Source of the DNA: a virus
Taxonomy: Duplodnaviria; Heunggongvirae; Uroviricota; Caudoviricetes
Reading direction: 5' to 3' (one strand)
Length of the DNA: 64,000 bases
IMG/VR virus record: IMGVR_UViG_3300045988_134250
Each line of letters begins with the position of its first letter. The first letter of the stretch is position 1. Shown piece after piece: positions 3,431 to 55,447 of the stretch. Made by a program: the position numbers and the translations under genes. The notes under the pieces were generated by a model that saw nothing but the letters and a program-made list of their open reading frames with translations, was not told the origin of the DNA and searched no databases.

Positions 3431-3475
3431 CCATTTGTGTTAGAAAATACATATTAATTATCTAACACAAATGGG
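3431..3475. promoter_or_regulatory. 45-bp palindrome containing two inverted copies of the TTTTCTAACA motif (candidate double operator) abutting the rdgC-like RBS
   Basis: ccatttgtgttagaaaatac atat taattatctaacacaaatgg; arms are reverse complements with one mismatch. Confidence 0.5.
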
Positions 3476-3483
3476 TGCATTTT

Positions 3484-4137
3484 CTATCCTTTCTTGAAAT
3501 CGAAGTTGCCAGCAGTGGCCTGAAAGGTTCCTCCTGCCTTGAAAGCTATGTCTCCGTTAGCGGTGACAGCAATATTTTCCCCTTTAACATTGATGTTGTT
3601 GGTTGATTTGACGTTAACACTCCCTCCTGCATTCACGATTACATCAGCCGGACCAATGATATATATCTGCCCGGACTCATTCATGCCAATCCTTGAGCCT
3701 GCTGCCGTATTGGCAATTTCATAGCCGCCACCAGCAGTTCGTACTTCAAGAATATTGTTGCGGTGAATAACGAAGTCTTTCGTTGCTGAGATTTGGGGGC
3801 GGGGAGGTGCTCCATCTACTTCCGGCGGCGTCCAGCCGTTGCCTTTGCCAGATGCTTCTGGTGCAACGTTTGGAATTCCTCCCGGTGCATCCTGAGCGGC
3901 ACCAACTATCATTGGGCGTCTGGTGTCTATTCGACCGTTAACATCTAAATAAGGAAACTCTACCCAGACCAGGTCACCTTTGACTGTGGGTACAAAAGCG
4001 TTTCCGATGGGTAACAGGTATTCCGCCCAGGGTAGATCGTCATCAGGAACGCCATTCCAGTCAGGTAAAACACGGACTTGAGCACGCATAAGCCCTGCCG
4101 GGTGCACAGTTCCAACAATTTGCGCTCTACGCTTCAT
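3484..4137 (-). CDS. Hypothetical protein with Gly-rich beta-strand repeats (function unknown)
   Basis: 217-aa ORF, 4-nt overlap with upstream ORF (coupling), same operon as rdgC-like/dmt. Confidence 0.5.
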   Translation of the reverse strand: MKRRAQIVGTVHPAGLMRAQVRVLPDWNGVPDDDLPWAEYLLPIGNAFVPTVKGDLVWVEFPYLDVNGRIDTRRPMIVGAAQDAPGGIPNVAPEASGKGNGWTPPEVDGAPPRPQISATKDFVIHRNNILEVRTAGGGYEIANTAAGSRIGMNESGQIYIIGPADVIVNAGGSVNVKSTNNINVKGENIAVTANGDIAFKAGGTFQATAGNFDFKKG

Positions 4138-5114
4138 TTGTTCGGCACTCCCAATATCATTCGTGTTGTGTAGCCTACGCGGTCTTCAAAGTGCGCAACA
4201 TTTTTTACTATCAGCTTACGGGGCATTGATTCATCAATGCGGTTTTCCTGGTCATAGCGGTATACGATAATCTCTATCACCATCCCCGGTTTTATATCAG
4301 GATTGCCTGCGACTTCTATATCCATTTTGGGGACGAGAGACAGCTGCATATTACGAAGAGTTTCCATATCAGAGTCGGATATATAACGCACTGGGAGTGA
4401 GCTATCGCCATATTCGACGTAGCCATCGGTCATGGAATACCCAACAAAACGATATTGATTCTTTGCTGTTGTCGCATGTTCCTGTTGGAGTAGGCGCATT
4501 TTGGACAAAGTGTATTCTGCTTTAGGGTTATTCCCCTCGTAGGTAAATGATGGCGTTTGCTTCATCAGATCAGCCAGGGTGTAAAAGTTAAATTCCCCCC
4601 GGCATACCCAACATAATGCACCTTTGTCTCGCGCTATCTCCGAAAGCATTTTTGACGGTTTGTCACCGGCATTCAGATGATATGTAACTGCGCGTTTTAG
4701 CACGCTGCTGGTAATTTTAAGCTTGCCGGAATATGCCTTGAATATAGCGTCTGGTGTTTTGTTGGTATGTAAATTTGTGCGCGGGGAGGGGATCTTAAAC
4801 CTGCGCACGTCTTCACTGACAGCAATAACGGTAACAACATCACCAGCCAGCATTGCAGACGTAACAAAGAAATCTGTTTTAAAAGTGCCTGCATTACCGT
4901 TTGGATCGCCCATTTCAGCCACCAGCGATGCACCGTATTTGGCTTTCCAGTCATCAATTACGGTGCCGGTAGCGTCATGAATTTCCAGTTTTAGCAAAGG
5001 GGCTTTGAGGCTGGTTTTTTCTACATATACTGCGGTAAAAATCCAGTCTCGTGGCACTTTGTTATCGTTAATGAGCACTGACTGTAGAAAATATTGTTGT
5101 AACTCCTGGGCCAC
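4134..5114 (-). CDS. Hypothetical protein
   Basis: 326-aa ORF, co-directional and tightly packed with neighbours; no recognisable motif. Confidence 0.5.
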   Translation of the reverse strand: MAQELQQYFLQSVLINDNKVPRDWIFTAVYVEKTSLKAPLLKLEIHDATGTVIDDWKAKYGASLVAEMGDPNGNAGTFKTDFFVTSAMLAGDVVTVIAVSEDVRRFKIPSPRTNLHTNKTPDAIFKAYSGKLKITSSVLKRAVTYHLNAGDKPSKMLSEIARDKGALCWVCRGEFNFYTLADLMKQTPSFTYEGNNPKAEYTLSKMRLLQQEHATTAKNQYRFVGYSMTDGYVEYGDSSLPVRYISDSDMETLRNMQLSLVPKMDIEVAGNPDIKPGMVIEIIVYRYDQENRIDESMPRKLIVKNVAHFEDRVGYTTRMILGVPNK

Positions 5115-5117
5115 TTA

Positions 5118-5885
5118 TCACCCCATAGATATCGAGGTTTCGGTAATAATACGTTTTGCGTCCAACTCCCATGCTGTGATCACGTCTGCAATCACACTTA
5201 TCGGCGCTTGTGTGGCATAAATACGCTCTTCTCCAATTGGTGCTGAAACATCCGTAAAGCCGACTTCTTTGGCATCCTGTATCGAGCAAATCAGCGGGAC
5301 CGGGACACGAACAAGGTGAGTGGTTGCTTCAAATTGTGTACCTGTCATCAGGCGAAGCCGTGCGCCCAGCGAATTACACATCAGACTCATGGTCGCTTTA
5401 TCAGTTGCCATTAACGTAACGTCATACGTCAGAATGGCCTGGGTGTATTCCAGTTCTGCTAAAGGCATTCCGGTATCCGGTTCGCAAAAACTGGCTACTT
5501 TTTTGCGGTCAATCTGCTGATCATCGTTGATATAATTGATATCCATATTGCGTGAGATATTGACCAGGGGGAGAGCATCCCGGTTAATGTTCTGGTTTTC
5601 AGGTTTTCTCCCTTGCCCGGCATTTGCGCGACGAACTGCTTTAAGAAACTCGATCGCATTGTCGAAACGGGCCACATAGACACGCTCTGCTGGTGGACGA
5701 TTCAGGAATGACGCAAAGCGTTTTTCTTCCGGCGCGGGGGCCACCAGTAAGATATCAGAAAAAATGTTGCTGATTAGCGTCGCAAACGCGTTATCCACGT
5801 TTTCAAAGCCCGTGGTCTGGAATTTTCCTGTGCGTGAGGTTTGCCATTCACCTGTTCGCGCCAGGAGGGTTTTATTTGAAGTCAT
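5118..5885 (-). CDS. Hypothetical protein
   Basis: 255-aa ORF, 4-nt gap/overlap spacing in the same operon. Confidence 0.5.
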   Translation of the reverse strand: MTSNKTLLARTGEWQTSRTGKFQTTGFENVDNAFATLISNIFSDILLVAPAPEEKRFASFLNRPPAERVYVARFDNAIEFLKAVRRANAGQGRKPENQNINRDALPLVNISRNMDINYINDDQQIDRKKVASFCEPDTGMPLAELEYTQAILTYDVTLMATDKATMSLMCNSLGARLRLMTGTQFEATTHLVRVPVPLICSIQDAKEVGFTDVSAPIGEERIYATQAPISVIADVITAWELDAKRIITETSISMG

Positions 5886-6685
5886 TCGATCACTCCGTTT
5901 TGAGTCGTATCAAAATTCCTGGCAGGTATGCAGTAGTAAAGCGAACCAACATGCTGTGTGCCGTAGCTAAAAATACGGTGCACGTACCACCAGCGGCGCG
6001 CTACGCCGTTTACCATCTCTTCATTCCATTCAAGAATTGAGCCGACGGGGACGTTATTTGCTGCAATACGCAGAATCAGAACATCATCGGTTAAGCCATC
6101 CTGCTCACCGTCTGCGTCAATCGCATGGAAAGAGTCACGCCCGTCAGGGTTATCCAGCACATAAACGATTTCAGGTTCCTGGTAAGTCAGTTCGCGTTGG
6201 TTGTTATCCAGTTCGGTGAATGACTCTTCTCCTGTTTCGTCGCTGACTACCCCATATGTGCCAACATCTGGTCGATATAAGAGAGCCTGAAACGCGTCTG
6301 GGCTGGATTCAATAATCAGCATCCAGTCTGCGCGGATTTGGTCGTTAAAGGCTTTATGCCCGTTATAGCGTGCTTTTAACTGTGGAGTCGGTTCTCTGCC
6401 AGCCAGGGAAGATGGAAGTATGGCTATATCTGATTCGCCAGCATCCGGAGTAAGGCCACCGTTGCTATCAGCAAAATTATCATGGCTATCAGCTTTGGCG
6501 GCGGGTTGCTCTTCCAGAATGCTGAATGAATCCGAACCGGTATTGCCATGTTCCGGCGCGCCTCCTGCATTCGCTTCAATCGGCGCTGGCGTTTCTCTCT
6601 GCGTGCTGTCATGTTCTGACTCCTTACTTGCCAGGTTTGCATCGTCAGCAAACCATTCGTCAAAACGGCCCATAAGCATCCTCAA
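5882..6685 (-). CDS. Hypothetical acidic protein
   Basis: 267-aa ORF, D/E-rich N-terminal half, first gene of the leftward operon ending at dmt. Confidence 0.5.
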   Translation of the reverse strand: MRMLMGRFDEWFADDANLASKESEHDSTQRETPAPIEANAGGAPEHGNTGSDSFSILEEQPAAKADSHDNFADSNGGLTPDAGESDIAILPSSLAGREPTPQLKARYNGHKAFNDQIRADWMLIIESSPDAFQALLYRPDVGTYGVVSDETGEESFTELDNNQRELTYQEPEIVYVLDNPDGRDSFHAIDADGEQDGLTDDVLILRIAANNVPVGSILEWNEEMVNGVARRWWYVHRIFSYGTQHVGSLYYCIPARNFDTTQNGVIE

Positions 6686-6835
6686 AGGTCGATCTGTCAG
6701 GTATCGAAAGGAAGATTTTCTGGAGATTGTGATTTTGGATGAAGGAGGGGGAATTCATAAAATGCACTTGCGCACAGTGCAACGGTGCGCTATAGTTATG
6801 GCATTCGGTAATCATCACGGAGGATCAAATGACTA

Positions 6836-7138
6836 ATGACCAAAAAAATTAACATAAAGGATTTCAGGGATGCGTGGCTTGATGATTTTTTTGAATTTTC
6901 AACACCACATAGAAAGATACCTCCTGATATTCATATGACATTGTCACGGAAGTTGGACATTATCAATGCCGCAACTACCTGTAAGGATTTAAGATCACCA
7001 CCAGGTAATCGGTATGAGGAACTGTCAGGGAAGCTAAATGGCTATTCATCAGTAAGGGTGAATAAGCAATATAGGTTAATTTTTAGGTGGGTTAACGGAA
7101 AGGCCGAGGACTTGTATCTCGACCCTCACAAATACTAA
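6836..7138 (+). CDS. higB: HigB-type toxin (plasmid maintenance system killer protein family)
   Basis: 100 aa; pattern F.D.WLDDFF...IP......L..L..L..A.....L..P.G.R.E.L.G.L.G..S.RVN..YRLIFRW.....ED..L..H typical of COG3549 killer proteins; RBS ggagga 10 nt upstream of ATG 6836. Confidence 0.7.
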   Translation: MTKKINIKDFRDAWLDDFFEFSTPHRKIPPDIHMTLSRKLDIINAATTCKDLRSPPGNRYEELSGKLNGYSSVRVNKQYRLIFRWVNGKAEDLYLDPHKY

Positions 7139-7208
7139 AACAGATACCCGGTTACGGACCGGGTTCTGACCAGAGTCCACTTAATACGCACGCTAGTAAG
7201 GGCAAAAA

Positions 7209-7547
7209 ATGAAACAGGCAACCAGAAAACCGACGACCGTAGGTGATATCCTGCTGTACGAATACCTGGAGCCGTTAGAGCTGAAGATCAACGAGTTAGC
7301 AGAAATACTTCATGTTCATCGTAACACCGTAAGTGCTCTTGTTAATAATAATCGTAAGCTAACGATGGATATGGCATATCGCCTGGCAAAAGCATTCGAT
7401 ACTTCTGTAGATTTTTGGATTAATCTTCAGACCGCAGTAGACCTGTGGGAAGTCGAAAATGATATGCGCGTTCAGGAAGAGTTAAGTCGTATCAATACTG
7501 CTGAAAAATTTATTTCTCAGCGGAACCTGAATAAAAAAGCAGCCTGA
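7209..7547 (+). CDS. higA: HigA-type antitoxin (XRE-family HTH, VapI-like)
   Basis: 112 aa; TVGDILLYEYLEPLELKINELAEILHVHRNTVSALVNNNRKLTMDMAYRLAKAFDTSVDFWINLQ matches the HigA/VapI HTH pattern; directly downstream of higB. Confidence 0.7.
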   Translation: MKQATRKPTTVGDILLYEYLEPLELKINELAEILHVHRNTVSALVNNNRKLTMDMAYRLAKAFDTSVDFWINLQTAVDLWEVENDMRVQEELSRINTAEKFISQRNLNKKAA

Positions 7548-7567
7548 TATAGTAAAACACATACAAA

Positions 7568-7597
7568 AAGCCCACTTAGCAAGTGGGCTTTCCTTTG
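7568..7597 (+). terminator. Hairpin terminator-like element after higA
   Basis: aagcccactt-agc-aagtgggctt stem-loop followed by tcctttg; ends 7 nt before next ATG (7604). Confidence 0.4.
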
Positions 7598-7603
7598 TAA
7601 TTA

Positions 7604-7963
7604 ATGAACATTAAACCTATCCGTACAGAACAAGATTATGAGGCCGCACTGCGTGCGGTCGAACCGATGTTCGATAACGAACCGGAAATGAATACTCCGG
7701 AAGGTGATTTCTTTGAGGTTATGTGTCTTCTCATTGAGGAGTACGAGAAAAAACATTACCCAATTGAGCCACCATCACCTATTGAGGCCATTAAATTCCG
7801 TATGGAACTGCAAGGACTGACCGTGAAGGATCTGGAACCGGCAATTGGTAAGTCAAACCGTGTTTACGAAGTGCTTAATGGGACACGAAATTTGACGTTA
7901 CCTATGATTCGTCGTTTACATGCCCAGTTTGGTATTCCACTGGAAAGCCTGGTTGGCGTTTGA
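7604..7963 (+). CDS. Second HigA-family antitoxin-like protein (C-terminal HTH), no adjacent cognate toxin
   Basis: 119 aa; C-terminal LTVKDLEPAIGKSNRVYEVLNGTRNLTLPMIRRLHAQFGIPLESL resembles E. coli K-12 HigA C-terminal HTH (...KLTLEHAKKLATRFGI... as recalled). Confidence 0.55.
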   Translation: MNIKPIRTEQDYEAALRAVEPMFDNEPEMNTPEGDFFEVMCLLIEEYEKKHYPIEPPSPIEAIKFRMELQGLTVKDLEPAIGKSNRVYEVLNGTRNLTLPMIRRLHAQFGIPLESLVGV

Positions 7964-7968
7964 GTTTT

Positions 7969-7994
7969 GCGGTCTGGATGACCGCTGTTTTTAT
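7969..7994 (+). terminator. Rho-independent terminator
   Basis: gcggtc-tggat-gaccgc hairpin followed by tgtttttat. Confidence 0.55.
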
Positions 7995-8026
7995 AAAAAA
8001 TAGATACTAGAAATTTGGTAGCATAT

Positions 8027-8806
8027 ATGAGTACAGATTCATCAGTAAAGAAGACATCTGAATCAGATAAAGAAAATGAGTCCGTTGTTGATTCCGTCAA
8101 GAATACAATGGAATATGTTATAAAAGATAAAGTATTTAATAAGCTTTTTGCATATATTTTTATATCTTTTCTGGTTGTTAACTGGAGAGATATATTAATT
8201 TTGTTCAAATCAAAAGAAGATGTTCTATATACTCTGTCAATAGTTTTTACCGGTGAAAAAATACAATTTCTTGATGGCGAGATTTTACCTCCTTGGTTTG
8301 CCCACTTTTTCTTGCCGTTTTTCTATGGTGTGATTGCGTCGATTGTGGCACCAGTAATTACACTTGCGGTATCTTGCATTACAACTAAGGTGTACTATAA
8401 AATAAAAATTTTGGACAATAAAACAGACGAAAACGAGAAAGAGAAATTAGCAAAAAGAGCCAAGAAAAGAGCTGAGCGTGAAATAGAGGCTAGCTATAGC
8501 CAACAAAAGCTGGATGAAAGAAAAAAAGAACTGGAAGACATTTTAAACAAAATAGAAGATGAAAAAGAAAAATATGATAAAATGAAAGAAAGGTTTGATG
8601 ATGCCATAACGCTTACATATAAAAATATTCACATTTTGCCTACTCTGTATGAGAATAGGAAATGTAAAATTGAAACTCCGCAGGATTTATATGATTTTAT
8701 TGCAGCAATAAAGAAAACATCATTCTATAGTACTGATTTTAATGAATTGTTCTCTGATATTTCTCGATTGTATTCTGAAATGCAAACTGATTTATCAGAA
8801 AAGTGA
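8027..8806 (+). CDS. AT-rich membrane protein with two predicted TM helices and a long charged coiled coil (function unknown)
   Basis: ORF-track 8015..8806 (TTG); first ATG at 8027. Hydrophobic stretches LFAYIFISFLVVNW and FFLPFFYGVIASIVAPVITLAVSCI, then KE-rich heptad region; markedly lower GC than flanks. Confidence 0.55.
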   Translation: MSTDSSVKKTSESDKENESVVDSVKNTMEYVIKDKVFNKLFAYIFISFLVVNWRDILILFKSKEDVLYTLSIVFTGEKIQFLDGEILPPWFAHFFLPFFYGVIASIVAPVITLAVSCITTKVYYKIKILDNKTDENEKEKLAKRAKKRAEREIEASYSQQKLDERKKELEDILNKIEDEKEKYDKMKERFDDAITLTYKNIHILPTLYENRKCKIETPQDLYDFIAAIKKTSFYSTDFNELFSDISRLYSEMQTDLSEK

Positions 8807-8841
8807 AAGCCTGGCATAGACCACCAGGCTATATGTGTGGT

Positions 8842-10035
8842 TTATGCTTTTTTTACATACGCCATAAACATTTTTTCAGCATGTTCTTGTGGCGTTCCTG
8901 CCATGACAAGCGCATCAATAAACGCCTGCTTCTTCAGTGCGAACTGATCGGCCAGGCGTTGCTGAAGCTCCTTGTTTTTCTGTTTCTCACGTTGCAACGC
9001 CGCTTCTTTTGCTGCCGCCCGTTTTTTCTGTGCGTCTGACAACTTTCTGGCCTTGGTCAGTTGGTCACGTAGCTTGTCAATCTTGCCGTTGTCCTTTGCC
9101 AGTTTTGTGCTTAAAGCGGCCTGGCGCTTCTGATAGAGTCTCCATTCTCGCTTGGCAGCGTCAACGTTCGTTTTACTGCTACGATTGCGATTAAACTCCT
9201 TCTCGTCTTCTTTTGAGAAGTGTTTGGTTGTACGGCGGCGATCGTCACCAAATGCAATTTGCGTTGCAGCCTTTTGTAGTGCACGAGCAATACTCATTTG
9301 CCAACTTGCGGACTGTAACCGCGTCATTGAGTGGATCACGTGTTTACAGGCGACGCCTTGTAGCTTAGGGTTACGAACTTTTGGATAGGCGTATTCTTTT
9401 GGCGGGGCCAGGGCAAAGTTACCCGCAGTAGCGATGTAACGATACCAGTATTGATGACGACCACAGTCACAATCGAAAGACACTCGCCCGGCGCACAGTG
9501 ATTTAGTGATTTTGAGAGCTGATTTATCGTCTTCTGCGATGTCATCGACCATCTGATCCCATTCTTCAAAGCGTATCCGGACGATATGGTGCTGGTGGAC
9601 GGATATATCCGATGCTTCTACGCGGATATTAATCACGTTGTGGCGAAGAGATACGGGGGTAGCTCTTTTGATACCAGATCCGTCATCCACGGCGTTATTT
9701 GCACGCTTAATATCGATTGCCTGGCTGGATGCCACCAGCTGGGCGTATGTGATGCCAGCCGTCTTGCTGTCATATTTTTCGCGTGTTTTACTCCGTAGCT
9801 TTTCGAAACCTTTCAGGTCGTCTCGCGTGAAGAACGTGCCGCCTTTTTTCTTCCCTAACTTGAGAATATCTTCGGCGGATTTGTTCCTCAGTCTACCTGG
9901 CGTCAGCGTCCGGTGAGCTTGTCGGCGCTTACGGGTTTGTTCTTTCCTGATAAGCTCGAATATACGCGTGAAGTCCTTAGAGGACAGACCGTCAGTGATA
10001 TAGCGCCCGTCCTGGTTTTTCAGGAAATCAGGCAT
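8842..10035 (-). CDS. SWIM-type zinc-finger protein with lysine-rich coiled-coil C-terminus
   Basis: 397 aa; CxC-x(n)-CxH arrangement FDCDCGRHQ...GVACKHVIH; C-terminal K/R/E/Q-rich tail. Confidence 0.5.
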   Translation of the reverse strand: MPDFLKNQDGRYITDGLSSKDFTRIFELIRKEQTRKRRQAHRTLTPGRLRNKSAEDILKLGKKKGGTFFTRDDLKGFEKLRSKTREKYDSKTAGITYAQLVASSQAIDIKRANNAVDDGSGIKRATPVSLRHNVINIRVEASDISVHQHHIVRIRFEEWDQMVDDIAEDDKSALKITKSLCAGRVSFDCDCGRHQYWYRYIATAGNFALAPPKEYAYPKVRNPKLQGVACKHVIHSMTRLQSASWQMSIARALQKAATQIAFGDDRRRTTKHFSKEDEKEFNRNRSSKTNVDAAKREWRLYQKRQAALSTKLAKDNGKIDKLRDQLTKARKLSDAQKKRAAAKEAALQREKQKNKELQQRLADQFALKKQAFIDALVMAGTPQEHAEKMFMAYVKKA

Positions 10036-10357
10036 TTTCTATCTCCGGTTCCGCGCTTGCGTAATCACGGATCTTGTTCCTCAGCCATGCCACATCAGGA
10101 AGAGTTAACGTGGTCCCTGCGGGCATTTCTTCCATTTCTGACTCATGGCCCACCAGCACCCGGAATACCCAGCGCAAATCTGCATTGCCATACGCCCGGT
10201 AGGCTGCAAGGTCTGAACGATATACTTCATCAATCTTTATCGTGTACTGGAAATTATCAGAGTGATACTCCGATACCCGCTTAATCATTTCCTGGTGAAA
10301 CAGCGCACGAAAAATATCGTCTTCAATGTACCTGTCGTCGAGTCTGCTATAGCCCAT
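10028..10357 (-). CDS. Hypothetical protein
   Basis: 109-aa ORF overlapping the start of the downstream ORF by 8 nt (coupled). Confidence 0.45.
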   Translation of the reverse strand: MGYSRLDDRYIEDDIFRALFHQEMIKRVSEYHSDNFQYTIKIDEVYRSDLAAYRAYGNADLRWVFRVLVGHESEMEEMPAGTTLTLPDVAWLRNKIRDYASAEPEIENA

Positions 10358-10550
10358 AACAAAGCCTCTCAGTCATAACCTGGGGGAAACTGTATGCAGG
10401 GTGTGAAATGTGAGAAACAGACAGGCCACCAGTTCAGGGGGATGTGGTTCATAAATCCCCTCACTGGTGACAAGTGACTTTCATTAATCTTTGTGCGGGG
10501 GCCAGCTTCATTTGCTGGCATTAGATTAAAAATTAAACGGAGTGAATGAC

Positions 10551-10685
10551 ATGGATGTTATATTCGAATTATTAATGCTAATTGATCTGTTTATGAACGC
10601 TTCATTGACCACTCAAATACTCGCGTCAATATTTTTGTTACTCTTCTACCTGGTATTGAGGGAGTTAACAAAGCTACTAATGTGA
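10551..10685 (+). CDS. Small hydrophobic peptide (44 aa), candidate membrane toxin-like ORF
   Basis: ATG 10551 preceded by RBS ggagtg; translation MDVIFELLMLIDLFMNASLTTQILASIFLLLFYLVLRELTKLLM; below the 60-aa cutoff of the ORF track. Confidence 0.3.
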   Translation: MDVIFELLMLIDLFMNASLTTQILASIFLLLFYLVLRELTKLLM

Positions 10686-11339
10686 TCAAAGTATCACGGT
10701 ATCTTCATCAACTTCTTTCCCAGTCAGCGACTTTGGCTGGGAGGTGCCTGCTTTAACTTTTTCATGCCCAATAATGGACAGGAACGAAGCGAGTATGCCT
10801 GTTTTTTGCTCTTTCTCGACTGTACCGGTCATCTGCTCTACGTAATCCGCACTGGCAACATTGTGGTATACGGTCGCGTAGCAACACAGGATCATCAAAA
10901 TATGTTCCGGCCTAATATCCTGCCAGTTCACCCGGTAAACTTCTTCTCCGTTACCGTTGTATTCGGTGTCAACGATGGAGTCGGGAATTTCGAAAGCACC
11001 TTTATTGTTTTGCGGCAGGGATAATAGCTTCTGGAGTTTTAGCTCTCTGTATCTTTCCATCCCTACGATGATCGCAGCTCTGCCGTCGGCATGACGTGTC
11101 TTGAGTGTTACCTGGCTTGCTCCGGTGCCAGCGGAGATCGTTGGCGTAATTTCGTCTACCAGCACCTTAAATTTGCTTTTCCGCAGGGCTGCTATAGCTG
11201 GAGGAATCTTTTGCTTTTGTTCCAATGCTGACGCGGGAAGGGGTTTTACTTCGTTAATCACGAGAGCACCGTCTTTCAGTATTGCAGTGAGCATTTGCGG
11301 TTTGCTGGTGGTCAGGCTGAATATTGCTATCTTCTCCAT
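10686..11339 (-). CDS. Hypothetical protein
   Basis: ORF-track 10686..11381 (GTG); in-frame ATG at 11339 has strong RBS ggaggaagg, giving 217 aa starting MEKIAIFSL. Confidence 0.5.
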   Translation of the reverse strand: MEKIAIFSLTTSKPQMLTAILKDGALVINEVKPLPASALEQKQKIPPAIAALRKSKFKVLVDEITPTISAGTGASQVTLKTRHADGRAAIIVGMERYRELKLQKLLSLPQNNKGAFEIPDSIVDTEYNGNGEEVYRVNWQDIRPEHILMILCCYATVYHNVASADYVEQMTGTVEKEQKTGILASFLSIIGHEKVKAGTSQPKSLTGKEVDEDTVIL

Positions 11340-11607
11340 TGTCCTTCCTCCACGGATGACGGATACAAAAAAAGGCCGCACATGGCGGCCTGCTTTGGCG
11401 TTATGACTCCCTACCGCGCTTCGGCTGAAAGTTAATCGTCAAAAGAACCTTCAACGGGAGCCGTTAGCGCGATGGATTATGTGCAGTTTGTGATTTCCAA
11501 AATAGTGTCAACCACTTTTTGTGGATTTTATTTTTTGACCGAAATTTGGCCTAAATCATGTTGATGTAGTTGATTGTTTTTGTAACATAAAACTTCATTT
11601 TGTTTAC

Positions 11608-12231
11608 ATGAAGGACGGTGTAGTGAAGTTAAGGGTTTTAGGGACCGCGCTCGCGGCTATGTTGGGATGCGTATCTGTTAATACAGCCAATGCAACTGCG
11701 TTACCTGCACAATTCAGGGCAGGGCAGCAGGTTATGAATAACGCTGGTGGGGATCATTCACAAGCGGCAATTATGGACTTTTGCAAGAGAGAGGGCATTC
11801 CATTACGGCCTGTTGGAACTCAGTTTATTGGTAAAACTGACTTTTGCGTTTTTGCATATACAGCATATCTGACGGACAAAGCTATAACAAAAACAGGTTA
11901 TTCAACCAAAGATACTCTTTCCAGATTAAGTCAGGGATGGCAGCAATTCGAAGTGTATCGCCAGCAAGGATTAGGTGAGTTATTACAACCACTTTTTATG
12001 CTTGCGCTGGTGCCCGAGGGGCAGCAATTTTTGGTTAAAAAGGGAATGCTTCGCCAAAGTGATATTGCCGGGTTCGATAGCATGATGGCTTATGAGCGCA
12101 AACTAACCGAGCAGCGAAATAAAAAACCATCTGCTTCATGTGTGCAAAGTAAAACAGCAGAATACAGTGCAGTAGCCGGGCCTTTAGCCAAACAAATGGC
12201 AGAGCAATGGTGTAAAAAATACGGGCAATAA
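11608..12231 (+). CDS. Secreted/periplasmic protein of unknown function
   Basis: 207 aa; N-terminal signal peptide ...LGTALAAMLGCVSVNTANA with AXA site. Confidence 0.5.
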   Translation: MKDGVVKLRVLGTALAAMLGCVSVNTANATALPAQFRAGQQVMNNAGGDHSQAAIMDFCKREGIPLRPVGTQFIGKTDFCVFAYTAYLTDKAITKTGYSTKDTLSRLSQGWQQFEVYRQQGLGELLQPLFMLALVPEGQQFLVKKGMLRQSDIAGFDSMMAYERKLTEQRNKKPSASCVQSKTAEYSAVAGPLAKQMAEQWCKKYGQ

Positions 12232-12251
12232 GTTACGCAGCGGAGGCAGAA

Positions 12252-12644
12252 TTGAAAAGATTGGCTATTGCTTTACTGGCGTCTTTCCCTTTGATCGCGA
12301 GCGCCGGAAATTTACAAGTTAAGTGCGGTAGGTTTGATATAAAAATCTATCCAGATGCCATATTTCTGAATGGGAATAAGGTTGATAACGCACACCGAAA
12401 AACTGAATCTGACGTAATGAGCTATGTGTTCCAGGAGTATGCGGAGATGGGGGGAACTTACACGCTGTACTCGCTGGATGTTCCTTCTCGCGGTGATATG
12501 ACATTATCCCATCAATGGCAGAACGCCGATGGCGAAGCTCTGCGCGAGGTTAAAACAGAAAAATGTGGCACTTTCCATTCTTTTAAAGGGAAAGCGCCAA
12601 ATGTTAAATCTGTGCTTGAAAAACAGCGCGCAGGTGAGCTTTAA
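12252..12644 (+). CDS. Secreted protein of unknown function
   Basis: 130 aa; signal peptide MKRLAIALLASFPLIASA. Confidence 0.5.
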   Translation: MKRLAIALLASFPLIASAGNLQVKCGRFDIKIYPDAIFLNGNKVDNAHRKTESDVMSYVFQEYAEMGGTYTLYSLDVPSRGDMTLSHQWQNADGEALREVKTEKCGTFHSFKGKAPNVKSVLEKQRAGEL

Positions 12645-12952
12645 ACACCTTTAACCACGGAGATGCCGTTCCCTGCACGATAGCGGCGGGGAACGGAATT
12701 CTCCATCAGGTCACGAATTACTCCCGCCTCATGTAGTTCCTCTGTTTCCCAGTATCTGTTTGTCACCAGATCGAGGCTGGCTATGACCTTGTGCCGGTCA
12801 TTAGGCATAGCCAATTTTTCTGCTATAACCATCAGTGAAAACTCTTCATCCAGTAGGATTTGATACCAGACTTTTGACAGTTCCAACTCTCTAATGAGGG
12901 TGAAGCGCCGCTCAAGTGTGGCGGCAGAATAAGTGAAATCTATTTTTTTCAT
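12641..12952 (-). CDS. Hypothetical protein
   Basis: 103-aa ORF downstream of ant-like gene. Confidence 0.4.
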   Translation of the reverse strand: MKKIDFTYSAATLERRFTLIRELELSKVWYQILLDEEFSLMVIAEKLAMPNDRHKVIASLDLVTNRYWETEELHEAGVIRDLMENSVPRRYRAGNGISVVKGV

Positions 12953-13011
12953 CGTGCGGATAATCCGATTATTTGGCAGTTAAATCCCCGGCGTCGCCGG
13001 GGATGCAGCAT

Positions 13012-13953
13012 TTAACTAACAATCCAGTCCATAGCAATAACATCCTCTGGAGCTAAATCAATAGCATGGATTTTCCCGTCACGGATGGTGCGCCAGTGCT
13101 TTCGTGATCCACCTTCGGGCCACACCCATATACCTTCAGGCCAGGAAGAACGACGACACACTGTTGCGTATCCAGTCCTGATCTTCTCTCTGGCGGTATG
13201 TAGTGACAGATTATCCTTTGGGCTTTCAGGCACAGGATGGTGGATTGCCTGAAACATCCCCATCTTTGGATGATACCAGCGTTTATTGCGTGGTTCTGCC
13301 TCCGACATCACCTGCTTAAAGGCTTTCCGGAAGGGGGCAAGGGCCACAATGGAGCGTCGCGCAAGCAAGCCATCGGGGGTCAAAAACTCATGTGTATCGG
13401 TGGGAATCCGGTAAGCGTTGACAAGGTTACGGCATTTGGCTTCAGTCAGGCCACATTTCGCCGCCAGCTGGCGGTAGCCAATGTAGCCTTCCGGCATATT
13501 GCCTTTCTTGATTTGCTCAACGGTTTCAGCGACCCTGGACACTTGTGCCGATACCTCGGCTACCTGGGCATTTACGGCGTTGATCCGGCGTTCATGCTCA
13601 AGATGCATTTGCGCCATTTCAGCCAGGATTTCGGCTTTTGATTTTAACTGTACCCGGGCATTCTCCAGTTCGCGCCAGCGGTCCACCAGCCGGGCGGTAA
13701 ATTCGGGAGAGAGCTGCGCGACGACGACAATACTATCGCGCTTGCCTTGTTCGCCTTCGAAGAAATAGGCTTTTGTGTATTTATTAGGGCTAAGTGATTG
13801 ATTATTCTCAACTGTAGCCAATGGCGTATGTTGGATAACTCCTTTAGCAACAAGTCTTTCGATGCTGCGTTTAACATCAGAGTGACGACTTCCCACCAGT
13901 TCCGCGATCTCAATACTGGTCATTGTCGCTTTTTGAGAGATGGACAGATTCAT
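13012..13953 (-). CDS. ant: Antirepressor-like protein with Rha-type N-terminal domain
   Basis: 313 aa; N-terminal MTSIEIAELVGSRHSDVKRSIERL (Rha/phage regulatory HTH); start overlaps stop of icd-like ORF by 1 nt. Confidence 0.6.
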   Translation of the reverse strand: MNLSISQKATMTSIEIAELVGSRHSDVKRSIERLVAKGVIQHTPLATVENNQSLSPNKYTKAYFFEGEQGKRDSIVVVAQLSPEFTARLVDRWRELENARVQLKSKAEILAEMAQMHLEHERRINAVNAQVAEVSAQVSRVAETVEQIKKGNMPEGYIGYRQLAAKCGLTEAKCRNLVNAYRIPTDTHEFLTPDGLLARRSIVALAPFRKAFKQVMSEAEPRNKRWYHPKMGMFQAIHHPVPESPKDNLSLHTAREKIRTGYATVCRRSSWPEGIWVWPEGGSRKHWRTIRDGKIHAIDLAPEDVIAMDWIVS

Positions 13954-14168
13954 CAGTGCACCTCCACGCAGTTCATCGGCAGATTCCAGTAATTGAGGAT
14001 CTCCATCGCATCAAGAGTGAAGCGAGCAGCAAAAATGCAGGGTTCTTCGGGAAGGTATGAGCGCGCCTCTGCTTCGGTAGCAGCCATGACGCAGATATAC
14101 AGGTGTTTTTGGCAGGAATAGAAACGCCAGATAAATTCAGAATGAGTTGGGGTAGGGATAGTAGCCAT
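13953..14168 (-). CDS. icd: Icd-like small protein
   Basis: 71 aa; RBS aaggagg; conserved EFIWRF.S.QK...AATE.EARS shared with second copy at 53664-53888; coupled to ant. Confidence 0.5.
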   Translation of the reverse strand: MATIPTPTHSEFIWRFYSCQKHLYICVMAATEAEARSYLPEEPCIFAARFTLDAMEILNYWNLPMNCVEVH

Positions 14169-14480
14169 ATTGGCAGCCTCCTTTGACTAAGTTAAGGAGC
14201 TACCGCGTGAGGTTCCAATCTCAATGGCGGTAGCACTGACTGGGTTGGAACTACCGGCGTCAAAGGGAACCGGCCTGCCTTTCGGCAGCCCAGCCAGCAC
14301 TACCATTGATCTCTGAGCTAAACGCTAAGTATGGCTGTGCGATGGCATGACACAAAAAAAGACGCGTTCGGCGTCTGTGTCGCCTTTGACATTATCCGGG
14401 GTTCCAATCCCGGCACCCGTTTTTCTAAGGTGCCGTAGAAATATACCCCACGATAATGCCAGGGCGCAACAGTCAGTATT
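14169..14480 (-). ncRNA. Structured leader / candidate c4-like regulatory RNA region upstream of icd-ant
   Basis: Minus-strand RNA has element CCUUUGAC (plus 14259-14267) complementary to the icd SD region GUCAAAGGAGG (plus 14177-14187), several stem-loops, and an internal terminator. Confidence 0.3.
14354..14375 (-). terminator. Rho-independent terminator within the immI-like leader
   Basis: gacgc-gttcg-gcgtc hairpin (14361-14375) followed on the minus strand by a 7-U run (A-run 14354-14360 on plus). Confidence 0.5.
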
Positions 14481-14648
14481 TTATGCTTTGGCGGATTTCT
14501 TCCTGACTTGCTTGCAGGCGTAGGCCATTGCTTTAGCTTTCACTTCATCCAGCTTCCCGGTGATCACTTCTTTTCCGAGAGTGACAAACCAGTCATAGCA
14601 ACCGCCAGTAATGTTCTTGATTTGAAAGTTGAGGTAGCGAACAGTCAT
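14481..14648 (-). CDS. Small ORF (55 aa) in the immI-like leader
   Basis: ATG 14648 with RBS gggggtg; MTVRYLNFQIKNITGGCYDWFVTLGKEVITGKLDEVKAKAMAYACKQVRKKSAKA; not in ORF track (<60 aa). Confidence 0.3.
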   Translation of the reverse strand: MTVRYLNFQIKNITGGCYDWFVTLGKEVITGKLDEVKAKAMAYACKQVRKKSAKA

Positions 14649-14969
14649 TTTGACACCCCCGGCGCGAGCAAAGAATGCAGATTATCGCGTGAGTGGTGGA
14701 AGACGAGTGATGGGAAAAGACTGTAGTTGTTCATAGTGTTGTGACTCCTTGCTTTCGGAGCCGCCATCGACTGTTCCACGGTCTGGTGGCGGCGCAATAA
14801 AGGCTGGAACACCGTGAGTCAACGGGGGCTTTTCAGCCACCTATATTGCACCGCCATAGGTATGGCGGAGGCAATAATACGAAAAACTAAACAGTTTGTC
14901 TCAAAAAGTTGACCGGTGTGCCAATCGGTAGTGAATGTACATCGGAGAGTTTTTCAATTCAACTTAAAA

Positions 14970-14979
14970 TGTTAGAAAA
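14970..14979 (-). promoter_or_regulatory. TTTTCTAACA motif copy (candidate C1-type operator)
   Basis: plus tgttagaaaa; upstream of the immI-like module 1 leader on the minus strand. Confidence 0.45.
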
Positions 14980-15558: not shown

Positions 15559-15626
15559 GATGGCAGTCTCTTACTTTTCAACGATTTTTCTATGATTGAT
15601 CAAAATGGTTAGATATTCAAAATTGA

Positions 15627-15636
15627 TTTTCTAACA
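15627..15636 (+). promoter_or_regulatory. TTTTCTAACA motif copy at head of the long rightward operon
   Basis: gattttctaacacaaaac followed by -10-like taatat and RBS ggagga. Confidence 0.45.
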
Positions 15637-15675
15637 CAAAACATTAATATCATTCCTGATAACTGTTTGGAGGAC

Positions 15676-17249: not shown

Positions 17250-17252
17250 ACA

Positions 17253-20085: not shown

Positions 20086-20098
20086 TGGGAGCAATGCA

Positions 20099-42044: not shown

Positions 42045-42054
42045 TTTCTAACAC
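42045..42054 (+). promoter_or_regulatory. TTTTCTAACA-family motif copy
   Basis: agatttctaacacatt immediately 3' of the 402-aa gene stop. Confidence 0.35.
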
Positions 42055-42055
42055 A

Positions 42056-43264: not shown

Positions 43265-43292
43265 TGCTATTCCCGTTACTTTGTTAAATTAT

Positions 43293-43302
43293 TTTTCTAA
43301 CA
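43293..43302 (+). promoter_or_regulatory. TTTTCTAACA motif copy
   Basis: atttttctaacatatt between 43264 gene start and upstream gene stop. Confidence 0.45.
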
Positions 43303-43377
43303 TATTTTATTAGTTTGATGACAGTATCGAAAGATGCAATAAACAAAAAACCCGCTAATTGGCGGGTTTTTATGCAA

Positions 43378-43888: not shown

Positions 43889-44383
43889 TTAATCAAGACA
43901 AACATACTCCGTGATAGCTTTTATGGCTTCAGCGGCACTGCGCGCCTCAAAGCAGTAGTAACCGGCTTCTGTGAGGCGAGTCATCCAGACGAGTTGTTCG
44001 GGAGTCAGGCGATTTCTCCCATGTTTCATCTCAATGCGCATTCCGTGGTATCCCCCACAAGCAAGGTCTATAGAAAGATCGGGATATCCCTTCTTTTGGC
44101 CCTCTGCCACCATTTTTATTGCCGTCCTTATGCCTCGCAGGCCACCGTTTGGAGTGGCGTGAGTATGCTCATACACATAACGCATATTGCGATACATCCA
44201 GTCCAGGACGCGAACCTGCTCGTAATGCTCATGGTTCCTTTTGATTAGATCTGGGTTTTTCTCCAGTTCTCTAAGAGCTGCGGCATGTGGGGATGTTTCA
44301 GAATATTCACTACGACGCCTTCTCTTTCGCGCTATTTTTCTAACACACCCATTGATAGTAAATATGCGAAATAATAACAACAA
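43889..44383 (-). CDS. VRR-NUC domain nuclease (PD-(D/E)xK family)
   Basis: 164 aa (TTG start, uncertain); ...YEQVRVLDWMYRN...GYPDLSIDLACGGYHGMRIEMK...LTPEQLVWM fits VRR-NUC; an operator-like motif lies inside codons ~12-17. Confidence 0.55.
   Translation of the reverse strand: MLLLFRIFTINGCVRKIARKRRRRSEYSETSPHAAALRELEKNPDLIKRNHEHYEQVRVLDWMYRNMRYVYEHTHATPNGGLRGIRTAIKMVAEGQKKGYPDLSIDLACGGYHGMRIEMKHGRNRLTPEQLVWMTRLTEAGYYCFEARSAAEAIKAITEYVCLD
44336..44345 (+). promoter_or_regulatory. TTTTCTAACA motif copy
   Basis: tatttttctaacacaccc. Confidence 0.4.
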
Positions 44384-54230: not shown

Positions 54231-54237
54231 AAATTAA

Positions 54238-54247
54238 TTTTCTAACA
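54238..54247 (+). promoter_or_regulatory. TTTTCTAACA motif copy
   Basis: aattaattttctaacataaat; degenerate copy ttttagaaac at 54217-54226. Confidence 0.45.
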
Positions 54248-54301
54248 TAAATAATCGGCCGAGCATTTTCCGATCATTGGGATGTTTTGTAGACACACAG
54301 G

Positions 54302-55264
54302 TCATCCCCTAAATCCCGCAGGGATTGACCAATCCTCACGGTCAAATTCAGACCGATAGCCACGCTGTTTCATCAGGTCAAAGGCTTCACCAATGGTTGC
54401 ACACCCCTGGGAGCCAGAATAATCCATTGAGAAATCTAGGGCACTGGATTGTTTAGGCTTATTCACTGCGGTAGCGGCACTACGTATCCATGCAAATTTT
54501 TTTGCCAGATTTTCAGCGGTACGATACAGAGCCTGCCGTTTTGCGTGCCCCTCGTCTGAACGACGCTTTGCAGCTCTCGCTTTTGCCGCCGCCAGGCAGT
54601 GGTTGGTATGTTCTTCCCTGATTACTGGTTTTTTATCCAGTACCCCGTTATCCGTTTGAGAACTATCTGCAGGTGAAGCCTTTGGCTGAACCGCGCATGA
54701 TCTTTCTCTTCTTTTGGCTATAGAGTGACTCTTATTTTCTATTGGCTGTTCATTTTGAACATGGGGGGACTTGTTCAATTTGAACAGGGGGTTCCCAGTT
54801 TCAAAAAAATAACGAACCTTTGAAATCAACTGCTTAACCAGTTTTGTGGCGTTGGCAAATTTGATGCCCTGCTTACCCCCTATCTCCATTGCTACATGAA
54901 TGAAGTGGAGAAATTGTGTCGTAAACCGATATACGTTACACACCTGGGCATTGTTATTCGCTACCTGATGTTGCTTAACAAGCATTCCGCACTTCGTCGC
55001 TTCAGCAAATGCCCGGCGCACAGTAGAAATACTGCGTCCTGTAATCTCGGACATATCAGCATATGAGCGACGGATCATGTATTCATCGGTAGACCCTGCC
55101 AGGTTGGCGAACTCGGCAATAATGGCGCTATGTGAAGGGGAAAGAAGACCGCTATGACGAGCAAAAAAACTCAACTGATGACCTTTGATTTTTTTGTGGT
55201 ATTCAGTGTTGTTTTTATACTCAGAAGTGTTGAAAGTTACTGAAACTGAATTTAAAATACTCAC
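54302..55264 (-). CDS. HTH-containing protein, candidate RepL-like replication/regulatory protein
   Basis: 320 aa; N-terminal region ...SYADMSEITGRSISTVRRAFAEATKCGMLVKQ...VCNVYRF; operator-like motif upstream. Confidence 0.35.
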   Translation of the reverse strand: MSILNSVSVTFNTSEYKNNTEYHKKIKGHQLSFFARHSGLLSPSHSAIIAEFANLAGSTDEYMIRRSYADMSEITGRSISTVRRAFAEATKCGMLVKQHQVANNNAQVCNVYRFTTQFLHFIHVAMEIGGKQGIKFANATKLVKQLISKVRYFFETGNPLFKLNKSPHVQNEQPIENKSHSIAKRRERSCAVQPKASPADSSQTDNGVLDKKPVIREEHTNHCLAAAKARAAKRRSDEGHAKRQALYRTAENLAKKFAWIRSAATAVNKPKQSSALDFSMDYSGSQGCATIGEAFDLMKQRGYRSEFDREDWSIPAGFRG

Positions 55265-55437
55265 CAGATAGTTCCGTGAAAAAATCTATCTACCGTATAA
55301 ATCTATGGCAGTGGATTTATACACCCAAAAAGCCGCTGAGAAGCGGCTTTTGCTTTTTTGGCAGTCGCTACCGGAGCAGTGACCGCGATCCTACTCGATC
55401 CCATCCACCAGGATCAACAGTGTATATAAATACACTA

Positions 55438-55447
55438 TGTTAGAAAT
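55438..55447 (-). promoter_or_regulatory. TTTTCTAACA motif copy
   Basis: plus ctatgttagaaatttaac. Confidence 0.45.

Follow-up and report, generated by a model that had tools for sequence, protein, structure and literature searches.

Genomic context

The window (the whole stretch of DNA analyzed here, 64,000 nt) is a D6-like phage-plasmid of the P1 supercluster, and is collinear with D6 at 94–99% identity. D6-like plasmid prophages are known in E. coli, Salmonella and Shigella, and a C1 protein at least 99% identical to that of the window is encoded on 74 PLSDB plasmids. The gene order dre-rox-c1-pacB-pacA-lpa agrees with both D6 and P1, and the window has two immI modules with C4 RNAs, each preceded by a predicted operator. 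Table 1 lists the predicted operators together with the associated genes, RNAs and promoter, and the P1 counterparts.

Table 1. Predicted C1 operators and associated features of the window (bivalent operators consist of two inverted sites)
Feature	Position	Strand	Score (bits)	Context	P1 counterpart
hrdC operator, bivalent	3436..3469	3436-3454 (-) and 3451-3469 (+), both strong	23.4 and 26.6	59-nt gap from baseplate gene 5 stop (3484) to hrdC ATG (3424); upstream of hrdC-dcm-dmt	Odmt/Op68, ahead of uhr-hrdC-dmt
C4 RNA, second immI module	14223-14310	-
isrK, second immI module	14355-14433	-
immI-2 operator, monovalent	14968..14986	-	27.3	overlaps ref stop codon; upstream of second immI-like module (isrK-like RNA, C4 RNA, icd, antirepressor)	Oc4 by function; Omat by position, because P1 Omat overlaps ref stop
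ref operator, bivalent	15605..15638	15620-15638 (+) strong, 15605-15623 (-) weak	27.3 / 8.1	between divergent ref (-) and orf88...ppp operon (+)	Oref
pdcB operator, bivalent, offset 15 bp	19016..19049	+ and -	28.3 (+), 13.1 (-)	between ppp stop (18991) and pdcB ATG (19090)	no exact counterpart (ppp/pdcB)
dut-isaA operator, monovalent	32233..32251	-	29.2	overlaps stop of Dre/Cre recombinase gene; 57 nt upstream of orf117-orf116-dut-orf114-isaA operon	no exact counterpart (dre stop/orf117)
second c1 operator, weak (TTTTCTAAAT)	33562..33571	+		~30 nt upstream of candidate c1 promoter
candidate c1 promoter	33600..33628	+		-35 TTTACT, 17-nt spacer, -10 TAAATT
main c1 operator	33643..33661	-	27.1	12 nt before c1 ATG, between candidate -10 and Shine-Dalgarno of c1	Oc1a-e
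c1	33673..34710	+		345-aa D6-type C1 repressor, presumed binder of the sites
lpa operator, bivalent, offset 15 bp	38076..38109	- and +	28.2 (-), 8.1 (+)	77 nt upstream of lpa (late-promoter activator gene)	Olpa/Op94
tRNA-tciAB leader operator, weaker, monovalent	41881..41899	+	18.5	unannotated leader upstream of tRNA-tciAB operon (tRNAs on minus strand)
tRNA-tciAB head operator	42037..42055	+	27.1	abuts pmgS stop; heads minus-strand leader to tRNA-Asn, -Tyr, -Thr, -Ser, tciA/B, tRNA-Met	Obanab/Op72, ahead of tRNA-tci-ban operon
pmgS operator, monovalent	43286..43304	+	28.7	22 nt upstream of pmgS ATG (43264), downstream of pmgR	OpmgRa/b/Op86
pmgM operator, monovalent	44329..44347	+	20.6	between candidate promoter (TTTACA 44398-44393, TATTAT 44376-44371) and pmgM start (likely GTG at 44310)	O26/Op82, ahead of pmgL-pmgM
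C4 RNA, first immI module	53936-54021	-
c4-a1b1, first immI module	54089-54141	-
immI-1 operator, top score	54231..54249	+	30.4	53 nt past repL stop; 90 nt upstream of c4-a1b1	Oc4/Op51 by function; Orlf/Op55 by position (4 nt after repL stop in P1)
repL operator, monovalent	55436..55454	-	27.3	between pro stop and repL, 172 nt upstream of repL GTG	OrepL/Op53

Enrichment, placement and geometry of the motif

The initial annotation had described a dispersed core motif with 14 listed copies. Nine of these are exact (TTTTCTAACA; 0.15 expected in the window), and five carry one mismatch (ATTTCTAACA at 32235, 41888, 42044 and 55438, and TTATCTAACA at 3458), including two that had been placed one nucleotide off at 41889 and 42045 (the correct positions are 41888–41897 and 42044–42053). 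None of 100 dinucleotide shuffles reached nine exact copies, and 19 matches to TTTTCTAACA with at most one mismatch were found versus 5.4 expected. Using a matrix derived from the window's own sites, we found 14 sites at 18.5–30.4 bits that conform to an asymmetric 19-bp consensus, AAATTAWTTTCTAACAYA, and everything else in the window scores at most 13.4 bits. Together with about five weak sites, these 14 strong sites are spread across positions 3436–55454 of the window. The whole D6 genome contains 15 strong sites (the window's 14 plus an extra one at D6 54201–54219), and the D6 GenBank records MF356679 and AY753669 contain no operator annotations.

Three further, degenerate copies had been proposed. 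The one at 19018–19027 does exist, as a weak half-site in inverted orientation (13.1 bits), and the one at 33546–33555 was misplaced, the conserved weak site being the second c1 operator of Table 1. The remaining copy, at 8005–8016 (TACTAGAAATTT), is not supported: two of the invariant core bases are mismatched and the score stays under 8 bits.

All but one of the 14 sites fall outside ORFs of at least 70 aa (binomial P 6e-11; these ORFs leave just 13.5% of the window uncovered), in agreement with the mostly intergenic placement noted initially, and the sole strong site inside a long ORF is probably located in a 5' UTR. Matrix sites were indeed found ahead of lpa, both immI modules, c1 and repL. 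At four loci the sites form 34-bp inverted pairs of fixed geometry (the remaining loci have mostly single sites), with an offset of exactly 15 bp in all bivalent sites of the window and its relatives. The palindrome reported around the hrdC pair is real (45 bp, 3431–3475, with 18-nt arms that are 94% complementary), and the ref pair was also recovered as an inverted repeat.

The motif is AT-rich and intergenic DNA is somewhat AT-richer than genes, as would be expected if the copies had arisen by chance from base composition; they could also be remnants of a small repeated mobile element. Both explanations are effectively refuted: intergenic DNA contains 12 copies of TTTCTAACA versus 0.12 expected from its own dinucleotide composition, likeness among the copies ends beyond ~19 bp, and orthologous copies keep the core where flanks have diverged (between the window and relatives with 70–80% C1 identity, the 19-mers are 85% identical and the flanks 58%). 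The motif is confirmed as real and far above chance.

The location of the copies at operon heads, and the resemblance of TAACAT within the motif to a -10 hexamer at some sites, would also suit a promoter element, either of an early sigma-70 class or as the target of the late activator Lpa. We consider this very improbable: half of the sites read TAACAC and lack the essential final T of the -10 hexamer, and the sites point in either direction with respect to the downstream gene (about half are co-directional; some P1 C1 operators are likewise mixed in orientation). Late operons for structural and lysis functions (portal, tail gene 7, the orf16 lysis gene, mat and ddrB) have AAAATCACA-N6-7-TAnnnT instead, without TTTCTAACA, and palindromic pairs at a constant offset of 15 bp are a usual trait of operators rather than of promoters.

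The c1 gene and its predicted operators

We propose that the sites are bound, as operators, by the C1-family master repressor that the prophage itself encodes, and consider this very probable. The c1 product is a full-length member of phrog_1678, the PHROG that also contains P1 C1; D6 records label it prophage repressor, and PF27008 (Phage_P7_repressor_C1) is precomputed on its close homologues. It shares 21% identity with P1 C1. Against the strict NCBIfam P1 C1 equivalog model it scores 25 bits (cut-off 500), and therefore is not a P1 C1 equivalog. A local Pfam scan of the c1 product gave zero family matches, with no HTH domain detected.

The two c1-adjacent sites flank a candidate promoter whose hexamers are kept in five of five aligned relatives. 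This promoter was recovered by a relaxed scan and falls below the threshold of the consensus promoter tool (9/12). With the same tool, no sigma-70 match of at least 9/12 was found overlapping operators at c1 or repL/immI-1; any promoter occlusion would therefore depend on poorer hexamers, a part of which are conserved. The main c1 operator is fully kept across C1 identities of 68 to 100%. At the weak site, TTTTCTAA forms an invariant island amid a diverged stretch in a five-way alignment, and relatives with C1 proteins 51% and 44% identical have a perfect TTTTCTAACA there.

As a separate observation, a moderate-confidence model of C1 (pLDDT 78.8, pTM 0.46, from a 9-sequence alignment) appears to resemble only Tus among solved structures. 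Tus was the only significant structural neighbor in two programs, with TM-scores of 0.32–0.41. Tus, the replication terminus protein of E. coli, binds asymmetric 23-bp Ter sites as a monomer; P1 C1 has likewise been reported to bind asymmetric sites as a monomer. Tus arrests replication forks, whereas the role of C1 would be transcriptional repression. The C1 and Tus profiles are collinear but weakly similar (hhalign E 0.0037 over 136 columns, probability 8.9%), and a PDB sequence search with C1 gave no hit, i.e. no significant sequence similarity to Tus. PF05472 (Tus) is the Pfam family most often matched among distant C1 relatives, yet in only 2 of 73 (best E 0.012), and shuffled controls match TerB at least as well as the operators.

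Conservation and covariation among relatives

Relatives with C1 proteins 44–90% identical to that of the window retain the core at syntenic places. The pdcB and pmgM sites are kept in the relatives L007 and L008, and the pmgS site in L007, L008 and L016. The tRNA-tciAB leader site is kept in D6, L007, L008 and L016, and the repL site is present in D6 (with one substitution) and in L008. Weak or missing partners can be stronger in relatives: both halves of the ref pair are strong in L007 and L008, the partner half of the lpa pair reaches 15.8–16.7 bits in the same two, and the counterpart of the tRNA-tciAB head site in L007 is bivalent. The dut-isaA site is found at the same place in L007, L008, L009 and L016, and plasmids from Leclercia and Pantoea have their own motif types at the equivalent place.

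The motif type covaries with the type of C1. D6-type genomes contain 11–13 copies of TTTCTAACA versus 0.3–0.9 expected, and there are none in P1, the Leclercia plasmid or the Pantoea plasmid. Genomes with more distant C1 types have other motifs: among the genomes compared, TGCTCTAAT is enriched in P1 only (14 versus 0.8 expected), ATTCTAAGG in the Leclercia plasmid only (7 versus 0.5) and TTCTAAAW in the Pantoea plasmid only (20 versus 3.3), and the enriched motif of each C1 type sits at syntenic positions.

This pattern shows a binder specific to the phage lineage and does not by itself single out C1; it would also suit another phage-type-specific protein, such as a Rha/Roi-type 'antirepressor' of the immI modules (the window has two Rha/Roi-like genes) or a small HTH protein. 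Such a binder seems improbable to us: the sites lie at the places of the experimentally defined C1 operators of P1, operon by operon, the motif resembles the P1 operator sequence, and two sites flank the candidate c1 promoter, as in P1 autoregulation. Moreover, L009 (plasmid pK91), in which only the recombinase-c1 region is left, still retains both c1-adjacent sites.

Comparison with the operators of P1, P7 and lambda

The P1 operator has a 17-bp asymmetric consensus, ATTGCTCTAATAAATTT (PMC8546580), as the initial annotation had given it. P1 and P7 have about 20–22 Op sites per genome, and D6-type phages, like P1, use numerous asymmetric sites scattered over the genome, in monovalent as well as bivalent form. 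Of 12 site-bearing loci, 10 are ahead of homologues of P1 operons with annotated, experimentally based C1 operators (Oref, Oc4, OrepL, Odmt, Oban, O26, OpmgR, Olpa and Oc1), the matched operons being ref, c4/immI, repL, hrdC-dmt, tRNA-tci(-ban), pmgM, pmgR/S, lpa and c1. In both types c1 carries more than one site, and the cognate repressor is of the same family and lies at the same genomic position (beside rox/lox, the recombinase gene and pacAB).

The operator sequences are nevertheless different, as had been claimed. Aligning the two matrices gives TCTAA in common and matches at 11 of 17 consensus positions. In the window, where TGCTCTAAT occurs 0 times, hits of the P1 matrix do not exceed 11.9 bits, and the D6-type matrix finds no strong sites in P1. 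About 19 bp of the D6-type operator are informative, and its AT-rich part lies on the 5' side of TCTAA, whereas it is 3' in P1. D6-type bivalent operators span 34 bp with divergent TCTAA pentamers (centers 21 bp apart), unlike P1 Obanab and Oc1ab; those of P1 span 28 bp, with convergent pentamers 13 bp apart. The D6-type C1 (345 aa) is extended, as compared to P1 C1, by ~100 aa of helical C-terminal sequence. Unlike in P1, coi is absent between the recombination site and c1, and at the locus beside ulx, where an Lxc homologue was sought, the small ORF does not match.

Like lambda CI, C1 would act as the master repressor of a prophage, silencing lytic genes, regulating its own gene and setting immunity specificity. 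Lambda OL/OR, however, are clustered at two loci, near-palindromic and bound by HTH dimers, whereas the sites of the window are scattered across at least 52 kb, mostly single and asymmetric.

A proposed heteroimmune C1 regulon

The existence, enrichment, placement and conservation of the sites, and their covariation with C1 type, were observed directly; binding by C1, repression as its outcome and an overlap of operators with promoters are inferred. While the phage persists as a plasmid prophage, C1 would occupy about 19 dispersed asymmetric sites and thereby block transcription of repL (lytic replication) and lpa (late-gene activator). Occupancy would also silence both antirepressor (immI) modules, ref and the hrdC-methylase operon, and further C1-blocked units would be pmgS, pmgM, the tRNA-tciAB operon and the dut-isaA operon. 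C1 would autoregulate c1 through the two sites flanking its candidate promoter. The computed placement, conservation and covariation thus support the heteroimmune C1-type operator regulon suggested initially. Dispersed C1 operators are an expected trait of this phage family, and the version found here differs in sequence from that of P1, so that immunity would be separate from P1 and P7.

Identity of the window and its C1 repressor

Phage D6 was the megablast match of window positions 30000–40000 (98% identity), and whole-window BLAST against the D6 genome showed collinearity with D6 61389..91159 followed by 1..29436, at 94–99% identity. This collinearity places the window, as a D6-like member, in the P1 supercluster of plasmid prophages. 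In the D6 records the gene at window 33673–34710 is labelled c1 prophage repressor, and lpa, pacAB, repL, ref, hrdC, dmt, pmgS, pmgR, pmgM and two icd/antirepressor modules appear by name as well; operators are annotated in neither D6 GenBank record.

The 345-aa C1 product shares 21% identity with P1 C1 over 240 residues and scores far under the NCBIfam P1 C1 equivalog cut-off. The two proteins have phrog_1678 in common over their full length, and homologues of the window C1 carry PF27008 (Phage_P7_repressor_C1). The family has few members (83 cluster representatives in 1.84 billion proteins), most of them 250–290 aa long and matching residues 5–245. An 86-aa ORF beside ulx, considered as an Lxc corepressor, is unrelated to P1 Lxc.

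An asymmetric 19-bp motif in intergenic gaps

The initial annotation had described a dispersed motif as candidate operators of a C1-type repressor, which would be heteroimmune to P1, a reading to be given up if the motif proved no more frequent than intergenic composition predicts. Exact TTTTCTAACA occurs nine times in the window (0.15 expected) and 19 times when up to one mismatch is allowed (5.4 expected); with intergenic composition alone as background, TTTCTAACA has 12 copies against 0.12 expected, so that this refuting outcome did not occur and a chance product is excluded. The 14 core copies originally counted are real sites, but five of them carry one mismatch (nine are exact) and two coordinates were off by one. 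As for the degenerate copies, the one placed at 33546–33555 was relocated to 33562–33571, and the one at 8005–8016 was rejected as unsupported.

Aligned, the 14 good copies give a 19-bp asymmetric consensus, A-w-a-T-T-A-r-W-T-T-T-C-T-A-A-C-A-Y-A, with information beyond the searched core at positions -7, -4 to -2, +10 and +11. The matrix built from these sites scores them at 18.5–30.4 bits, and every other position at 13.4 bits or less. ORFs of at least 70 aa cover all but 13.5% of the window, and 13 of the 14 sites fall outside them (P 6e-11). The remaining site, upstream of pmgM, has a good candidate promoter on one side and an SD-GTG start (44310) on the other, and is probably in a 5' UTR too.

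The annotated pmgM start is a TTG at 44383, as in D6 orf12. Around 44310–44383, a promoter-like TTTACA-16-TATTAT is followed by the operator, and the operator by an SD (GAGAAGG) and then the GTG at 44310. The annotated start is probably wrong, and translation from the GTG would give a protein shorter by 24 residues.

Four loci are inverted pairs in which the 19-mers stand at an identical 15-bp offset, each locus covering 34 bp and reading TGTGTTAGAAA...TTTCTAACACA; the remaining sites are single. The weaker halves of the pairs are stronger in relatives, where a fifth locus is also bivalent (an inverted pair), always with the same offset.

The reading of the motif as a promoter element fails, since in half of the sites a -10 hexamer would be missing its final T, site orientation is mixed, and the late operons bear another motif. 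A sigma-70 consensus scan of the c1 and repL/immI-1 regions gave no match of at least 9 of 12 overlapping an operator. A relaxed scan gave weak candidates only, with weaker hexamers, some of them conserved, beside or across most sites; overlap of promoters with the operators is something we only infer.

Locations of the probable operators and their P1 counterparts

A dispersed C1 operator regulon is textbook knowledge for P1. The C1 operators in the P1 GenBank record are Oref, Omat, Ossb, Oc4, OrepL, Orlf, Odmt, Obanab, O26, Oppp, OpmgRa/b, OpmgT, Olpa and Oc1a-e, and 10 of the 12 window loci match operator-bearing operons of P1 (see the table).

Probable operator loci and neighboring features of the window, with P1 counterparts
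Feature	Position (strand)	Location or content	P1 counterpart
Paired operator locus	3436–3469
Paired operator locus	15605–15638
Paired operator locus	19016–19049
Paired operator locus	38076–38109
Operator site		11 nt upstream of hrdC (paired locus 3436–3469), head of hrdC-dcm-dmt	Odmt
Operator site		on ref stop codon, ahead of immI module 2	Oc4 by function; Omat overlaps ref stop too
Operator site		between divergent ref and orf88 (paired locus 15605–15638)	Oref
Operator site		between ppp and pdcB (paired locus 19016–19049)	no exact counterpart
Operator site		on dre stop codon, ahead of orf117-dut-isaA	isaA is in ssb-isaA operon under Ossb
Operator sites, two places		around c1 promoter	Oc1a-e
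Operator site		upstream of lpa (paired locus 38076–38109)	Olpa
Operator sites, two	41881; 42037–42055	head of minus-strand leader into five tRNA genes and tciAB	Obanab, before tRNA-tci-ban operon
Operator site		upstream of pmgS	OpmgR
Operator site	44329–44347	upstream of pmgM	O26
Operator site		90 nt upstream of c4-a1b1, immI module 1	Oc4, ~100 nt before a1/b1
Operator site		upstream of repL	OrepL
tRNA genes	39528–40820 (-)	Met, Ser, Thr, Tyr, Asn
Leader	40821–41880	~1.06 kb without annotated gene, between the operators and tRNA-Asn	long leader of ban operon (by position)
immI-type module 1	53936–54141	C4 antisense RNA; c4-a1b1 target element
immI-type module 2	14223–14433	C4 antisense RNA; IsrK-family match
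Palindrome TTTTACCGATCGGAACAAAA	19053–19070	directly after ppp/pdcB operator
Late motif AAAATCACA	6728–6736 (-)
Late motif AAAATCACA	11489–11497 (-)
Late motif AAAATCACA	33582–33590 (+)
Late motif AAAATCACA	42033–42041 (-)
Late motif AAAATCACA	52185–52193 (+)
Late motif AAAATCACA	58204–58212 (-)
Late motif AAAATCACA	62323–62331 (-)

The two leader sites are assigned to the tRNA operon because ARAGORN and Rfam, contrary to the D6 feature table, place the tRNAs of both the window and D6 on the minus strand. The D6 GenBank record has three tRNAs on the plus strand, without tRNA-Met, and ARAGORN puts them on the minus strand (D6 counterpart 6084–7850); the window has an extra tRNA-Tyr relative to D6. 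The leader of the ban operon in P1 holds a dicF-like region; no Rfam family reached its gathering score in the window leader. In immI module 2, the match to the IsrK family of Hfq-binding sRNAs (61 bits) lies immediately upstream of C4. The small palindrome beside the ppp/pdcB operator is kept in relatives with 70–80% C1 identity.

Relation to the P1 operator and to late promoters

Eighteen P1 17-mers give the P1 operator consensus ATTGCTCTAATAAATTT, which is also quoted in PMC8546580. The best matrix-to-matrix alignment puts the two motifs in the same orientation with a common TCTAA, ATTGCTCTAATAAATTT in P1 against AATTTTCTAACAYATTA here, and 11 of 17 positions agree. P1 operators hidden in the window were sought with the P1 operator matrix, which found nothing above 11.9 bits, and the D6-type matrix found nothing above 14.8 bits in P1. 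Which register is right is uncertain: the forward reading fits the P1 sequence better, and the other-strand reading TRTGTTAGAAAWYTAATTT fits the P1 architecture better, having a conserved block on its 5' side, an AT-rich tail on its 3' side and, in bivalent sites, overlapping tails. Whichever register is taken, the geometry of the two-site loci is unlike that of the 28-bp Obanab of P1.

A different lineage-specific DNA-binding protein, in place of C1, could in principle occupy the sites; this alternative is disfavoured by the P1 synteny of the sites and by the resemblance of the motif to the P1 operator. C1 is very probably the binder. Repression by C1 at these operons is established in P1. 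By analogy, C1 on the motif sites would keep lytic replication, the late activator and the antirepressor modules silent, along with several early operons, and would autoregulate c1 via two sites ~83 bp apart, on either side of the c1 promoter.

The motif was also considered as a P1-type late promoter (AAGTGACTT plus a -10, extracted from P1) and rejected: the window contains a single exact box, at 10472, where there is no motif site. The window late operons have AAAATCACA-N6-7-TAnnnT in place of, and different from, the P1 box. This second intergenic motif precedes tail gene 7, mat, the orf16 lysis gene, portal and ddrB, and is probably the Lpa-dependent late promoter of the D6 type. Of its copies, one overlaps the operator at 42037–42055 and another is found a short way upstream of the c1 promoter. 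Chi (GCTGGTGG), whose richness is known for P1, occurs 48 times in the window against 1.6 expected (e.g. 408, 2548, 41914, 41978), and is equally over-represented in all related plasmids examined, including those of Leclercia and Pantoea.

Covariation of the motif with C1 type

Relatives with 80% and 70% C1 identity have the core at the same places within different flanks (19-mers 85% identical versus 58% for ±40-nt flanks). In a five-way alignment, the DNA upstream of c1 is diverged except for conserved islands: the rox arm, the weak operator (33562), hexamers resembling -35 and -10, the main operator and the SD-ATG. At 51% and 44% C1 identity, TTTCTAACA is retained at both c1 sites, lpa, the tRNA leader, pmgS and the recombinase stop. 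At ~30% the motif is altered and the positions are kept. In Leclercia plasmid pE1_003, ..TAG..ATTCTAAGG follows the recombinase stop and also stands ahead of c1, ref, the genes resembling lpa, repL and pmgM, and the pmgS end; in Pantoea plasmid pPSP-26e the motif is CAyAwTTCTAAAwtaat, and hrdC is preceded by convergent pairs of it.

The motif-by-genome count matrix is diagonal: among its genomes, TTTCTAACA has 11–13 copies in D6-type genomes and 0 elsewhere, TGCTCTAAT 14 copies in P1 only, ATTCTAAGG seven in the Leclercia plasmid only, and TTCTAAAW 20 in the Pantoea plasmid only. Such a pattern is as expected for cognate repressor-operator pairs. We do not press a 'discriminator base after TCTAA' code (T, C, G, A across the four types), because the register of the D6-type motif relative to P1 is ambiguous.

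Two other sequences are over-represented in pE1_003, the palindrome AGTGATCACT (6 strand-counts vs 0.1 expected) and ACTGTATGAC (7 vs 0.09 expected); they may be the late-promoter box or iterons of this plasmid.

A possible Tus-like fold

We modeled C1 with AlphaFold2 from a 9-sequence alignment (mean pLDDT 78.8, pTM 0.46). The sole significant neighbor among solved structures (Foldseek) was E. coli Tus bound to Ter DNA, with E 6.7e-7 to 2.2e-5 and probability 1.00 for each of four Tus entries, the next hit having E 0.047. The model matched nothing in the BFVD structure library. A comparison of the 83-sequence C1 profile with Tus by hhalign was weak (E 0.0037, probability 9%, 136 collinear columns), and PF05472 was the Pfam family most often touched by 73 distant C1 relatives (2 members, best E 0.012); sequence support for the link is faint but consistent. 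Searches of PDB sequences with C1 (phmmer, hmmsearch) found nothing. The operators do not resemble Ter sites beyond chance, TerB scoring no better than shuffles by both matrices (P 0.46–0.59). Full-text search found no paper linking C1 to Tus. We take the predicted Tus-like fold as a lead and no more than that.

Tus binds asymmetric sites as a monomer, so the fold, if the assignment holds, would explain asymmetric operators; monomer clamping, if true, would account for C1 operators being asymmetric, ~17–19 bp long and dispersed. A joint reading, about which we are somewhat more doubtful than confident, is that C1-family phage-plasmid repressors, that of the window among them, are Tus-fold monomer clamps with at least four mutually exclusive operator specificities: P1 TGCTCTAAT, D6-type TTTCTAACA, Leclercia ATTCTAAGG and Pantoea TTCTAAAW. 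In this reading all four share a TCTAA-like core, and the D6 type has a two-site geometry of its own.

Implications for D6-like elements

Full-text search found the D6 operator sequence in no paper (two primary D6 papers are outside it). Neither GenBank records nor searchable papers contain the D6-type consensus, its 34-bp paired form or the covariation series, all of which may have been described earlier.

D6-like plasmid prophages are common in E. coli, Salmonella and Shigella, and C1 relatives occur in 149 PLSDB plasmids (from 100% down to 25% identity). An operator consensus would permit annotation of D6-like elements, would predict mutual immunity among them, and would define a repressed regulon of lytic replication, the late activator, two antirepressor modules, methylases and tRNAs. 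Non-cross-reacting C1/operator pairs could yield orthogonal repressor parts, and the series could help show how the structurally uncharacterised C1 family reads DNA. The Tus-like fold, if true, would tie a classic phage immunity repressor to a replication-terminator protein.
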